Positions 59,001 to 62,000 of a stretch of 64,000 nucleotides of DNA are shown piece by piece. This DNA comes from Escherichia coli (GTDB lineage: Bacteria > Pseudomonadota > Gammaproteobacteria > Enterobacterales > Enterobacteriaceae), in the NCBI RefSeq assembly GCF_017348835.2, contig NZ_CP071375.1; one strand, given 5' to 3'. The first letter of the stretch is position 1. Every line of letters starts with the position of its first letter. The position numbers were made by a program.

Positions 59001-62000
59001 GTGCTTTAGGTGAATGTTTTCACCAGGTTAACATGACGGTGCATTCTTCAAGGCATATATGGTTGATAGTATCTTCAGTAGCTCGCATAAGTATTGAGAT
59101 GTTTTACGCCAGTTACGAATATATTGCATATTTTATTCTCTGTAAGATTTCTTATTAGCACTTAGCCATTTCTAGTTAAAAGGATTAATTATGAGTTTTG
59201 CAGCTACAGATTATCCATCCGGCGCACTAACTGGATCGGGTACACATAACGTGACTTTGAGCGGCAGCGCAGTTCCTGATGGAATGTTACTGTTTGCAAG
59301 CTTAGGGGGTACAGAAACAGTAGGGGAACTATTTACTTATTCTATTAAATTAAAAACTCCTGACATCCTGAACCTGGGCTATGTTTCCCCTGCCGCAAAC
59401 CTGCAGCTCAAACCGATGGTGGGCAAAGATCTGTGCGTCCATATCGAACTGGATGGCGGCGGAAAACGTTATATCAGCGGGCTGGTGACGGCGGCACGCG
59501 TGGCTGGTCATCAAGGACGTTCGGTGGTGTATGAACTGCGGCTCGAACCGTGGTTAAAAATACTGACCCACACTAGTGACTACAAAGCGTTTCAGAATAA
59601 AAACGTGGTGGACATCCTGGATGAGGTACTGGATGAGTATCCCTGGCCAGTGGAAAAACGGCTGGTGGAAAATTATCCGACTCGCGCCTGGCAGGTGCAG
59701 TACGGTGAAACAGATTTCGCTTTTATTCAGCGCCTGATGCAGGAGTGGGGTATCTACTGGTGGTTTGAGCACAGCGAGAACAGTCACACGTTAGTGCTGG
59801 CTGATGCCATTAATGTCCACAAGGCATGCGCAGATTCGCCGCTGGTGTGTTATTACCAGAAAGGGCTGAAACTGGACAAGGAGTTTATCCATACCATCAC
59901 AGCAAATGAAAGTCTGCGCAGCGGACAGTGGGTGCTGAATGATTTCGACTTTATGAAGCCGCGTTCACTGCTGAAGAGCACCGTGGCTAATCCGCGTGAA
60001 ACCGGCCTTGCTGAATATGAGCACTACGAATGGCCGGGAGATTACTTCACAAAGAGTGAAGGTGAAATGCTGACACGCATTCGCATGGAAGAACAGCGTA
60101 GCCCCGGTAGTCGGGTACAGGGCAGCGGCAATATTCGTACCCTGATGACAGGTTTTTCCTTCACCCTGGAAAACTATCCGACAGCCGAAGTGAACCGGGA
60201 ATATCTGCTGGTACAGACCACGCTATTTATACAGGACAATGCGCAACACAGCGGCCAGGAGCAGCATTTCTCTTACTCAACCAGTTTTGAACTGCATCCC
60301 ACCAGCGAAGTTTACCGCCCACAACGAACCCTGAGTAAACCCCACACTAAAGGCCCGCAGAGCGCCATCGTCACCGGCCCGGCAGGGCAGGAAATCTGGA
60401 CAGATAAATATGGCCGGGTGAAAGTTCAGTTTGGCTGGGATCGTTACGGTAAGAATGACGAAAACAGCTCCTGCTGGGTCCGTGTCAGTTATCCGTGGGC
60501 GGGTAAAGGATTCGGTGGCATTCAGATCCCGCGCATTGGTCAGGAAGTACTGGTGGATTTCAAAAACGGTGATCCGGATTTACCGATAATCGTTGGGCGT
60601 ACCTACAACCAGGACACCATGCCACCGTGGGGACTACCGGGCGCAGCGACGCAAAGCGGGTTTTACAGCCATACTATCGGCGGCGGCCCAACCAATGCCA
60701 ACGCACTACGTTTTGAGGATAAACCTGGCGGTGAAGAGGTCTGGCTACATGCCGAAAAAGATCAGCGGATTGAAGTAAATAATAATGAAAGCCACTGGGT
60801 GGGCAATAATCGCCTTAAAGTCATTGATAAAACAGAAACAGCGATAATTGGTGAGGAACGTTCTCTTACAGTTCAGATGGATGATACCTCCCTTGCCGGA
60901 CAAAATAAAACGATTCAGGCCGTACAGAATTTACGCCTTGCTGCGGGAGATTCCATAATTCTTAGTTGTGGGAAAACTATCCTGCAAATGACCAGTGACG
61001 GAATATTTAATATAACCTGTAAGAATTTTAATATTACTGCAACAGAAAATGGAAAGATAAATACACAATCAGGTCAGCTTGATTTAAATATGAATGACAG
61101 GGCTGCAGATATACTTCCGCCTGGAGCATCGGAAAAAACAGCCCTTCAGTTGGCGATAGACGTCGCCTTCATGACTAAAAAATAAATAAAAACCATCATT
61201 AAATAATTTATTAATTAAAAAGGACTCATATCATTATGACGGAGTATTATCTCAATGAAACTGTTGTAACTTTTCCCGGGAATATTATTCAGGACAGCAC
61301 TATTAATATGCTGCGCCTCAGCGATCCCGACGCTGCACTCATTATCAGTCGGGGCCAGATGCAGGAAGGAGACGAATTAGCCTCCCAGATTGAACAGCAA
61401 ATGAAAAAACTGGAGAAACAGGTAAAGGATCTTCACTACACGCCCGTTCAGGTAACACGGGTAGGGATTAATGACGGTGAACAAGGGCTGGAAATACAGA
61501 GCCAGTTTCTCAGGGGTAACGAGCAGGTGTACCAGTGTCAGGTGGCATTTGTGTTGCCGGGTGAGCGAGTCATGATGGCCTTCACCTACGCCAGAACCAC
61601 ACCGCTGACCCCGGCAGATATGACGCGCTGGGCTGAAATTAAAAAGAATCTGCGCTTCAGGATGCGGCAGGAAGCCAGGACGAATTAATCATACAGGGAA
61701 CGGGACATGGAAGAGGCATTCTGGGCGGCAAGACAGGGTGATGCCCTGCTGCATACGTCGTTTATGGCAGATGTGCTGGGGGCGGTGCTGGAGGTGGCCG
61801 CAAATGTCGTTATTGATGCCCTCATTGTCGGCACAACCTCGTTACTGGCGACGTCAGTGGGGATCACGATGGGGTGCACGGCCGTCGTGCTGACCGGTTT
61901 TGTGGCGGGTGTGGCGATGGTGTACACCGGCGTGACAGAAAAGGTCAGCGAAGCCTGTTCAGCCCTCGCAAATATGCTTTTCCCGCCTCAGATTGAAGGT

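Follow-up and report, generated by a model that had tools for sequence, protein, structure and literature searches.

Gene content of the vgrG island

The DNA analyzed here, a 64-kb stretch hereafter called the window, comes from Escherichia coli and is near-identical to strain PE164. It spans an orphan vgrG island located between ansP and nhoA, i.e. the RhsE locus, and all the features described below are on the + strand. The spike gene of this island, vgrG (tssI; 59191..61185), is an intact ORF of 664 aa that matches, with 100% identity, the gene annotated as Vgr in the complete PE164 genome. Directly 3' of it lies eag (61236..61688), an intact gene encoding a 150-aa effector-associated chaperone of the DUF1795/DcrB family (Pfam DcrB, E=3.6e-19). 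This gene is annotated as DcrB-related in PE164 and its product is 98-100% identical across the alleles compared. It is followed by an rhs 5' remnant (61707..63074), a pseudogene encoding a prePAAR-TMD-PAAR-DUF6531 protein (Pfam PAAR_motif at aa 291-321 and DUF6531 at aa 395-452). Its N-terminus is MEEAFWAARQGDALLH, followed by a hydrophobic stretch, and the prePAAR motif AARQGDALLH is found at aa 7-16. Hence, the island harbors an Eag/prePAAR module in which the DUF1795 gene is followed by a prePAAR-TMD-PAAR effector, truncated here.

The truncation occurs after DUF6531: the Rhs cage and the toxin are deleted, and the PE164 annotation flags the gene as incomplete. On its other side, the deletion is bounded by an nhoA 3' fragment (63065..63475) that is fused to the truncated rhs, matches only positions 134-237 of the Pfam Acetyltransf_2 profile and is annotated as missing its N-terminus. 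In other strains, the intact locus carries rhs, an immunity gene, symE, pptA, yddH and nhoA. A second intact eag-rhs copy that would use the spike was considered and rejected, eag-rhsN being single-copy in this genome. Since rhs is truncated and no second copy is present, the spike of this strain has probably lost its own cargo.

Upstream of vgrG, two AT-rich ORFs (58048..58970; GC3 0.28-0.29) encode a 189-aa HExxH protein and a 118-aa lipoprotein, the latter weakly matching NF045617 ('putative T6SS immunity periplasmic lipoprotein'; 33.8 bits vs a cutoff of 43). They adjoin vgrG in every allele inspected and probably form an effector/immunity pair belonging to this island. Other strains carry eag-rhs at the RhsC locus, where it retains the vgrG-eag spacer with only the final 18 nt of vgrG, and stands behind another AT-rich region (GC 0.35).

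Domain architecture of VgrG and of its tail

VgrG displays the Pfam domains Phage_GPD (aa 41-350, 328 bits), Phage_base_V (aa 405-472, 51 bits) and Gp5_trimer_C (aa 489-594, 90 bits), and matches the NCBIfam models TIGR03361 (aa 30-541, 558 bits, cutoff 186) and TIGR01646 (aa 53-524, 417 bits, cutoff 122). The hub, the OB fold and the C-terminal beta-helix are therefore above family cutoffs, which makes this protein a VgrG/TssI spike. VgrG structures from the PDB match it with E-values of 0 to 1e-133. The last residue covered by TIGR01646, the curated Vgr core model, is aa 524 (position 60762). No Pfam or NCBIfam domain was found after Gp5_trimer_C, and VgrG lacks the extra folded domain past the beta-helix (TTR/DUF2345, ACD and similar) that characterizes specialised ('evolved') VgrGs.

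The tail consists of the distal gp5-like beta-helix and an end of ~26 aa. Its first part (aa 525-638; 60763..61105) is the distal beta-helix/prism, which ends in GQLDLN and, by homology, would form the blunt end bearing the PAAR domain. Its second part (aa 639-664 and the stop codon; 61106..61185) encodes a short C-terminal peptide with a conserved hydrophobic/Phe end motif. The tail is homologous to those of the VgrG1a type: it is colinear with Pseudomonas aeruginosa VgrG1a up to residue 615 of 643, and aligns without large gaps to the structures 4mtk (VgrG1a) and 7q5p (Pseudomonas protegens VgrG1), to chain residue 615. Its motifs are common to relatives from five genera, in particular CGK..FNITA..G.INT..G.LDLN, and the terminal motif I/V-x3-V/I-D/N-x2-F is conserved in distant relatives. 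A discrete adaptor domain in the tail was rejected, given this colinearity and the lack of any extra domain. The monomer AlphaFold2 model is poor across the spike (pLDDT 40-60) and was kept out of the fold search and of contact claims; it places a helix at 646-659 that is weak because of its pLDDT of ~40-55.

Composition of vgrG

As the preliminary description of this DNA had stated, vgrG switches abruptly to AT-rich coding near its 3' end, GC being 0.519 upstream and 0.390 downstream of the change point. The best single G+C change point is 60755, and a two-break model puts the step at 60769. The core (aa 61-524; 59371..60762), which encodes the gp27-like hub, the OB fold and the first beta-helix turns, has a GC of 0.528 and a GC3 of 0.58. 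GC3 falls to 0.34 in the tail, i.e. the last 140 codons of the gene (aa 525-664). The interval initially delimited, 60780-61185, has a GC of 0.394, which places it among the lowest 3.7% of the 406-bp windows of the 64-kb stretch. Codons 1-60 (59191..59370), mostly outside the conserved Vgr core model, are also AT-rich (GC3 0.30) and the GC-normal block is therefore restricted to 59371-60762. Moreover, the low GC extends past the vgrG stop codon: the tail, the 50-bp vgrG-eag spacer (GC 0.16) and the first 25 eag codons form one low-GC tract (60769..61310 in the two-break model; GC 0.36).

Such a step might arise without any recombination if the abundance of N, K, I and T in the beta-helix by itself demanded AT-rich codons. 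The enrichment in N, K and I that had been noticed is real, these residues accounting for 10.4%, 6.7% and 9.6% of the tail vs 4.0%, 4.7% and 4.3% of the rest of the protein. GC1 and GC2 also decrease from core to tail (0.59 to 0.49 and 0.41 to 0.37, respectively), and same-family tails in other genera are ~0.04 lower in GC than their cores. However, the drop is greatest at synonymous third positions (0.58 to 0.34), and the low-GC tract runs through the non-coding spacer into eag. Shuffles of vgrG's own codons match the observed step in only 2 of 5000 cases for all positions and in 0 of 5000 for GC3, and a GC3 as low as 0.336 is reached in only 3 of the 1037 140-codon windows from the long ORFs of the window, a set that included vgrG itself. 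Furthermore, GC and GC3 drop by 0.13 and 0.24 in the E. coli tail, whereas same-family tails from Pseudomonas and Snodgrassella are only 0.04 (GC) and 0.03-0.07 (GC3) below their cores, GC3 being 0.87 vs 0.89 in Pseudomonas. Since same-family tails drop far less elsewhere, amino-acid composition is insufficient to explain the step; the incongruent allele phylogenies and sharp breakpoints described below also argue against this explanation, which we regard as very improbable. A weaker GC drop is present in every E. coli VgrG examined, indicating that the step is partly a general property of VgrG tails in this species.

Exchange of the tail between E. coli alleles

The AT-rich module had also been suggested to be recombined, and the alignment of eight E. 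coli alleles lends this proposal good support. The vgrG core is 1.5-2.5% distant from all five of the strains MDR_56, MEI003, MIN6, JNE151685 and PapRG-06-5. Along the tail (60770-61235), the distance is 1.5-1.9% to MDR_56 and MEI003 vs 7.9-9.4% to the three others. At the eag 3' end and rhs N-terminus, it is 0.9-1.4% to MIN6, JNE151685 and PapRG-06-5 vs 9.2-9.3% to MDR_56 and MEI003. The tail thus groups with MDR_56 and MEI003, and both flanks with MIN6 and PapRG, the tail distance matrices being incongruent with those of both flanks. Maximum chi-square analysis placed breakpoints at 60804 and 61240 against MIN6 and at ~60769 against MDR_56; in both comparisons, 0 of 2000 permutations equaled the observed value. 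The 5' breakpoints sit on the compositional change point. Hence, the step in composition, the 5' recombination breakpoints and the C-terminal limit of the Vgr core model all fall within a short junction (60755..60804) encoding a motif conserved across VgrGs, which was found in every VgrG compared.

These data, which cover eight alleles only, show that homologous recombination between E. coli strains exchanged the tail together with the spacer (~60769/60804 to 61240), in a manner uncoupled from both the core and eag-3'/rhs. Tail alleles are far more ancient than those of the core: dS between tail haplogroups is 0.26-0.38 in the tail vs 0.06-0.14 in the core. Core allele diversity is 0.01-0.03 up to ~60500 and ~0.05 towards 60762. 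The tail dN/dS (0.07-0.28) indicates purifying selection, and diversifying selection was rejected on this basis. Among close alleles, the second part of the tail is the most variable stretch, with 10 of 30 variable sites at aa 631-660. A repeat search of 57200-63600 found no repeated vgrG tail fragments, only short chance matches; orphan 3'-end copies downstream, as expected from an Rhs-style C-terminal displacement, are therefore absent from this interval.

Some features of the locus could suggest that the segment is decaying and non-functional, or even an assembly artefact. The island is eroding, as seen from the truncated rhs and from the frameshift that vgrG carries in three of the eight alleles. 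Nevertheless, this strain has an uninterrupted ORF that recurs unchanged in the complete PE164 genome, the tail is present at 90-100% identity in ~194 complete genomes and dN/dS is well below 1, which leaves this explanation with hardly any credibility.

Alternatively, the low-GC tract could be kept mainly for regulation, as an H-NS nucleation site or an internal eag-rhs promoter, its coding content being secondary. In E. coli, H-NS commonly binds AT-rich DNA of horizontal origin. The tract straddles the vgrG-eag junction, the spacer is its most AT-rich part, and the eag-rhs of the RhsC locus has kept this spacer with 18 nt of vgrG behind a low-GC region. However, sigma-70-like promoter matches are not in excess in 60500-61750 (3 vs 2.0 expected), and the tail is under purifying selection as a protein, with motifs conserved across genera. 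A scan of 60500-61750 for terminators detected none, and an Rfam scan gave no match in the low-GC tract. A mainly regulatory role is therefore unlikely.

Relationships with paralogues and origin of the mosaic

The core DNA is 83% identical to the T6SS-1 vgrG of E. coli strain C10 over 59353-60671. At the protein level, identity with this T6SS-1 paralogue drops at the core-tail boundary, from 83% in the core to 28% in the tail. The 5' end (codons 1-60) is 57-63% identical to the paralogue, against ~88% in the core. DNA homology to all other E. coli vgrG paralogues stops at 60614-60671. Outside the species, VgrG from Snodgrassella is 71% identical in the core and 47% in the tail, and the tail from Leclercia is 46% identical. 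In a set of 100,044 species representatives, the tail closest to this one outside E. coli is that of Escherichia sp. E1V33 (90%), the next ones (Leclercia, Snodgrassella) being at 45-50%. Among 1.84 billion cluster representatives, other tail matches do not exceed 52%, except for a few fragments of 46-128 aa of unknown source at 82-97%. Hence, no donor lineage for the tail was found in either set. The genome scan for tails used a four-sequence alignment, the initial one being too diverse. In a word-indexed protein search, the isolated 141-aa tail matched short fragments only; with the full protein, the best 120 matches were E. coli alleles at 98-100% and one duplication variant at 91%, without distant tails.

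The mosaic may result either from import of the tail or from homogenisation of the core with paralogues. In the latter case, the tail would be an older resident part of an AT-rich island (57600-61310) in which the core was replaced or homogenised by gene conversion with a paralogous vgrG. Most of the island is indeed AT-rich: besides the upstream ORFs and codons 1-60, with GC3 values of 0.28-0.29 and 0.30, its spacers have a GC of 0.16-0.31. Furthermore, the GC-normal block matches the segment shared with the T6SS-1 paralogue and the TIGR01646 model, and core alleles are young while tail alleles are old. On the other hand, the core DNA is only 83% identical to the sampled paralogue, so that the conversion would not be recent or its donor would be unsampled, and the tail itself clearly moved between allele backgrounds. 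We therefore consider this scenario a serious possibility, albeit rather unlikely as the main explanation. Core conversion and tail exchange are compatible and not mutually exclusive.

Tail family and downstream cargo

Seven loci with the full tail family, from Snodgrassella, Leclercia, Pseudomonas and a Polyangiaceae MAG, all carry a DcrB/DUF1795 gene followed by a PAAR-DUF6531 Rhs gene downstream of vgrG; four of them were confirmed by Pfam (DcrB and PAAR-DUF6531) and the other three were read from ORF translations. The Rhs N-terminus carries AARxxDxxxH in six of them and the variant AATxxDxxxH in the Polyangiaceae MAG. Two VgrGs that share only the junction (Paraburkholderia and Pantoea) are followed by DUF2169 and Tox-PAAR-like genes, and the VgrG of strain Nissle, located at the same ansP site, has DUF4123 next downstream. 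Thus, at the level of families, the tail tracks the loading system and, judging from these sequence associations, may specify cargo. The preliminary description had viewed the 3' module as an adaptor region specifying which effector or chaperone is loaded. The association of tail families with loading systems (the seven loci vs the DUF2169 loci) agrees with the second half of this proposal; an adaptor in the sense of an extra domain is not present.

Within E. coli, tail alleles do not co-vary with Rhs N-terminal TMD variants. For instance, the allele studied here combines an MDR_56-type tail with a PapRG-type rhs N-terminus. Tail variants were exchanged independently of Eag/Rhs N-terminal variants and are therefore not cargo markers among E. 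coli alleles. Since the two are uncoupled, allelic differences of ~10% carry no visible cargo signal.

By homology, and given published work on related systems (PMC8636562; 10.1101/2024.12.20.629533), the PAAR/Eag complex would bind at the tip of the VgrG trimer and be delivered in a VgrG-dependent manner. In particular, the bioRxiv study (10.1101/2024.12.20.629533) places PAAR on the flat top of the beta-prism.

Proposed model and significance

We propose, with a probability of about 75%, that vgrG ends in an AT-rich recombination cassette encoding the distal end of the T6SS spike. According to this model, vgrG would be a mosaic in which a GC-normal core (aa 61-524), 83% identical to the T6SS-1 vgrG of other E. 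coli strains, was joined at the conserved HAEKD motif (aa 520-524) to a low-GC tail (aa 525-664) from a different tail family. The tail would complete the trimeric beta-helix with its last turns and supply the blunt end docking the PAAR domain of the downstream prePAAR-Rhs toxin, which the Eag chaperone would hold. As the predicted PAAR docking end, the tail would set, by its type, the class of PAAR cargo accepted, and closely related E. coli tail alleles would be interchangeable. Since the tail moves independently of the core and of Eag/Rhs and its alleles are several times older than those of the core, its diversity could also be kept for a reason other than cargo choice. This could be a mixed-trimer 'compatibility code' among co-resident VgrG paralogues acting through the beta-helix, or a silencing/regulatory unit formed with the AT-rich spacer for the downstream toxin; we put either forward as a speculative and rather improbable role.

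Under the recombination cassette model, this gene offers a sequence-level map of modularity in an E. coli T6SS spike gene, where the HAEKD junction divides the shared core from an exchangeable tip. The engineering of chimeric spikes has a natural splice point here, and the junction is also useful as a marker for typing vgrG islands and for predicting the cargo class of VgrGs (Eag/prePAAR-Rhs, DUF2169/PAAR-like or DUF4123). Nevertheless, this kind of system is known: the vgrG tail is a clean but ordinary example of modular evolution at such loci and leaves the current understanding of T6SS loading unchanged. In the literature searched, we found no paper describing this specific GC step.

Comparison with known systems

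The closest architectures are those of P. aeruginosa VgrG1a (PA0091; PDB 4mtk, 6h3l/6h3n) and P. protegens VgrG1 (7q5p), which have 643-645 aa vs 664 aa here and which are the spikes of the Eag-dependent prePAAR effectors Tse6 and RhsA. The whole tail is colinear with theirs to the LDLN end of the beta-helix, and the gene order (vgrG, DUF1795 eag, prePAAR-PAAR effector) is that of VgrG1a-type loci, as also found at Pseudomonas loci L018, L019 and L021. However, tail identity is only ~33-40%, and in Pseudomonas tail and core share the same GC3, without any compositional mosaic. Furthermore, the E. coli core belongs to a different clade from VgrG1a and is closest to enterobacterial T6SS-1 VgrG and Salmonella VgrS. 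VgrS from Salmonella Typhimurium (PDB 9MLP) is among the closest cores (phmmer, 1081 bits over aa 10-614). Like the T6SS-1 VgrG of E. coli C10 (WP_040090562; core 83% and tail 28% identical), it also has a DcrB-family gene and a PAAR-Rhs gene downstream. The C10 vgrG shows a GC drop at the homologous position. By contrast, BLASTP detected no similarity between the C10 Eag and the Eag found here, and the C10 Rhs N-terminus is 27% identical over ~150 aa and lacks AARxxDxxxH in its first 120 residues.

The same module of three genes is known as VgrG-EagR-Rhs1 in Photorhabdus laumondii (Jurenas et al. 2021, PMC8636562) and as VgrG2-Rhs-EagR in Serratia (Cianfanelli et al. 2016, PMC4924876). These are functional studies that do not describe any compositional or recombinational boundary.

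A GC step within a T6SS loading gene also marks a recombination site in the chimeric tap-1 adaptor genes of Vibrio cholerae, whose variable 3' part has been suggested to move together with the effector gene that follows (Unterweger et al. 2015, PMC4557670). However, tap-1 encodes a DUF4123 adaptor and not a spike, its GC step is ~3% vs 13% in vgrG, and the exchanged vgrG tail moved without the downstream rhs N-terminal variant.

Lastly, rhs genes associate a GC-rich core with an A+T-rich tip and evolve by C-terminal displacement (Jackson et al. 2009, PMC2935791). The vgrG gene belongs to the same type of locus and likewise has a conserved motif at which a conserved core gives way to a divergent, AT-rich 3' end. 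Displaced rhs tips accumulate downstream, whereas no displaced vgrG tails were seen in 57200-63600. The exchanged parts also differ in nature: the rhs tip is a toxin, whereas the variable part of vgrG is the structural end of the spike.

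Compositional boundary within vgrG

The vgrG gene (59191-61185) changes composition abruptly near its 3' end, as the preliminary description had claimed from the sequence. Its G+C content is 0.519 before and 0.390 after a change point located at 60755 by a single-break model or at 60769 by a two-break model, and the drop from the core (aa 61-524) to the tail (aa 525-664) is steepest at third codon positions (GC3 0.58 to 0.34; GC1 0.59 to 0.49; GC2 0.41 to 0.37). When the gene's own codons were shuffled 5000 times, the observed GC step was reached twice and the GC3 step never. 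The richness of the tail in N, K and I residues, noticed at the same time, corresponds to a real over-representation. The interval initially delimited, 60780-61185, has a GC content of 0.394 (lowest 3.7% of same-size windows across the 64 kb), but the AT-rich sequence is more extensive: the tract continues past the vgrG stop to about 61310, including the spacer (GC 0.16) and codons 1-25 of the downstream eag gene. Furthermore, vgrG codons 1-60 (59191-59370) are likewise AT-rich at synonymous sites (GC3 0.30) and less conserved with respect to the T6SS-1 paralogue; vgrG is therefore mosaic at both ends. Hence, the gene consists of a GC-normal block (59371-60762) inside an AT-rich island, beyond which eag-3'/rhs sequences are GC-rich (GC3 0.62-0.67).

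Amino-acid composition accounts for little of this step: tails of the same family from Pseudomonas and Snodgrassella lie 0.04 GC below their own cores, with GC3 nearly unchanged, versus 0.13 GC and 0.24 GC3 here. Every E. coli VgrG examined drops somewhat (0.05-0.11 GC, 0.09-0.18 GC3), that of the window being the strongest case. A primarily regulatory role of the low-GC tract may be another, less likely explanation; promoter, terminator and Rfam scans of the tract give it no support. The simplest interpretation is a difference in history between core and tail: the tail may come from a low-GC pool that has not been sampled, the core may have been replaced or homogenised against paralogues, or both may have happened.

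In the protein, Pfam assigns Phage_GPD to aa 41-350, an OB fold to aa 405-472 and Gp5_trimer_C to aa 489-594. TIGR01646 ('vgr_GE', the curated Vgr core model) covers aa 53-524, almost exactly the GC-normal block, and the TIGR03361 match stops at aa 541. The AT-rich part begins directly after the conserved LHAEKD motif and is made up of the distal beta-helix plus some 26 aa of C-terminal peptide. It aligns colinearly with P. aeruginosa VgrG1a and P. protegens VgrG1 as far as residue 615 of these proteins, where the helix ends in LDLN. Since there is no extra domain beyond the beta-helix, this VgrG is of the canonical short type, devoid of any added adaptor or effector domain, and the 'adaptor region' initially proposed is better termed a 'distal spike/PAAR platform'. 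In the spike, the pLDDT of a monomer AlphaFold2 model was low (40-60), and our conclusions are not based on this model.

Independent exchange of the tail among E. coli alleles

At megablast level, this vgrG was found in about 240 of 5426 complete genomes and its tail in about 194. Eight alleles were aligned over 58100-62700 and distances were measured from the window's allele. For strains MIN6, JNE151685 and PapRG-06-5, these were 1.5-2.5% in the vgrG core, 7.9-9.4% in the tail (60770-61235) and 0.9-1.4% in the 3' part of eag and the rhs N-terminus; for MDR_56 and MEI003, the corresponding values were 1.7-2.1%, 1.5-1.9% and 9.2-9.3%. This disagreement between segments indicates that the tail has been exchanged independently of both flanks. 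Against MIN6, the maximum chi-square breakpoint lies at 60804 (24 differences over 1613 sites before, 40 over 431 after), with a second one at 61240; against MDR_56, the run of clustered differences stops at 60768. The observed value was reached in 0 of 2000 permutations in each test, and the junctions fall on the compositional change point. These data bear out the recombination suggested in the preliminary description.

Synonymous divergence between tail haplogroups (dS 0.26-0.38, versus 0.06-0.14 in the core), together with dN/dS values of 0.07-0.28, shows that tail alleles are old, functional and under purifying selection. These values rule out a decaying tail, and the dN/dS range makes no diversifying selection evident. 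Separately, vgrG is annotated as frameshifted in three of the eight alleles (A36, Z1323HEC0300 and JNE151685), and one database allele (P0159) contains a 47-aa tandem duplication within the hub domain; erosion of the vgrG island appears to be under way in many lineages.

Relatives of the tail and associated cargo

DNA similarity to the other vgrG genes, which occur in about 4000 E. coli genomes, stops at 60614-60671. Compared with the T6SS-1 VgrG of E. coli C10, identity is 83% in the core and 28% in the tail; no similarity was detected between the Eag of C10 and that of the window, and the Rhs N-termini share only 27% identity over about 150 aa. Compared with a Snodgrassella VgrG, the order is reversed (core 71%, tail 47%), so the closest relatives of the core are not those of the tail, a pattern that a chimera would show. 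The Leclercia tail is 46% identical. The E. coli form is rare, with only 154 matches at E ≤ 1e-3 in 1.84 billion cluster representatives, where a few short fragments (46-128 aa, source unknown) are 82-97% identical and all other matches reach at most 52%. Among 100,044 species genomes, the only close copy (90%) is in Escherichia sp. E1V33, with the same GC3 step (0.35 versus 0.59).

The tail family is present in its full form (CGK..FNITA..G.INT..G.LDLN, followed after about 20 aa by F) in seven loci belonging to Snodgrassella, Leclercia, Pseudomonas and a Polyangiaceae MAG. In all seven, an Eag-like gene and a PAAR-Rhs gene come after it. The prePAAR start is AARxxDxxxH in six and the variant AATxxDxxxH in the Polyangiaceae MAG; DcrB and PAAR_motif plus DUF6531 were verified with Pfam in four of the seven. 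VgrGs that carry other tails have different loading genes as neighbours. Those from Paraburkholderia and Pantoea have only the junction in common and are followed by DUF2169 and Tox-PAAR-like genes. At the same ansP site, E. coli Nissle carries PAAR-VgrG-DUF4123-effector, and EC24 a VgrG followed by an Rhs core with no PAAR motif across its first 500 aa. Comparison of these sequences indicates that tail families track the cargo system. The literature points the same way: the flat upper face of the prism carries PAAR (bioRxiv 10.1101/2024.12.20.629533), and the C-terminus is the main point of difference between Serratia VgrG1 and VgrG2 (PMC4924876). At fine scale, E. coli tail alleles do not track cargo, tail variants being swapped without the Rhs N-terminal TMD variants.

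The rhs N-terminus itself holds a second swapped cassette (61784-61975). Among E. coli alleles, its TM segment after prePAAR (aa 28-88) comes in two strongly divergent versions (nucleotide diversity 0.2), and the prePAAR motif and following PAAR region are near-identical in both.

The RhsE locus and its truncated rhs gene

The region of interest occupies the classical RhsE locus, with ansP (55637-57187, minus strand) on one side and a 3' nhoA fragment, then yddE, on the other. Since the window carries no T6SS core genes, the island is an orphan vgrG island. It includes successively two AT-rich ORFs (58048-58970), vgrG, eag (61236-61688, a DUF1795/DcrB Eag chaperone gene) and the first 1.37 kb of a truncated prePAAR-PAAR-DUF6531 rhs gene (61707-63074) fused to the nhoA fragment. 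The remaining window is ordinary E. coli backbone (paa genes through hrpA, trg to ydcS-V). The pig isolate PE164 matches at 100% over 59191-61700 and 61190-62900, and its chromosome differs from window 1-49158 at two positions. Its annotation includes two pseudogenes, paaC (frameshift, 2296-3041) and paaK (internal stop, 9256-10569), and, between ydcL and ydcO, an IS200/IS605 tnpA with an internal stop plus an insQ/TnpB gene (34314-36021). In the nhoA-yddE spacer (63481-63519, minus strand), a sub-threshold Rfam match to naRNA4 (39.9 bits against a gathering score of 59.5) probably corresponds to a REP-like element.

Both upstream ORFs (GC3 0.28-0.29) are kept in all alleles seen. One encodes a 189-aa protein with an HExxH motif, without Pfam or NCBIfam match and labelled 'type IV secretion protein Rhs' in some RefSeq records; the other encodes a lipoprotein of 118 aa that matches a T6SS immunity lipoprotein family below threshold. 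The two probably form an uncharacterised effector/immunity pair. The site downstream of ansP (about 57200-63500) carries other vgrG islands in other strains, such as yncG, PAAR, VgrG, DUF4123 and effector in Nissle 1917 or yncG, yncH, VgrG and Rhs core in EC24, and is a hot spot of alternative T6SS cargo modules.

The rhs gene is cut after DUF6531 and joined to the 3' third of nhoA (61707-63475), by a deletion that took the Rhs cage, toxin, immunity gene, symE, pptA, yddH and the 5' part of nhoA. The pig strain F2_81 matches at 99.9% over 61707-63475, with the same DUF6531-only gene annotated. The source genome has no second eag-rhs copy. The spike probably carries no cargo or works with other effectors, for example the HExxH protein encoded upstream. 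Moreover, at the RhsC locus (ybfA-ybgA), strains OkiPb01712 and C11 carry, without vgrG, an eag-rhs pair 98% identical to that of the window (61168-62900). The homology starts within the last 18 nt of vgrG, which suggests that this pair was copied from a vgrG-linked module; such strains may use the RhsE-locus VgrG in trans.

Putative mechanism and comparison with known systems

The tail would form the last turns of the trimeric helix and serve as the platform for the split PAAR domain that the Rhs toxin carries, with Eag as the stabilising partner. Crossovers may occur via the conserved HAEKD region upstream and conserved eag/rhs sequences downstream.

The variability of the VgrG C-terminus as a specificity determinant is established, and we found no published description of the core-tail junction in RhsE-locus E. 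coli vgrG. This gene is a well-resolved new example of GC-step mosaics that is unlikely to surprise a specialist. Its step resembles that of V. cholerae tap-1, a T6SS loading gene in which a GC step is a mark of recombination (PMC4557670), and its organization resembles the 'GC-rich core plus AT-rich tip' design of Rhs loci (PMC2935791).
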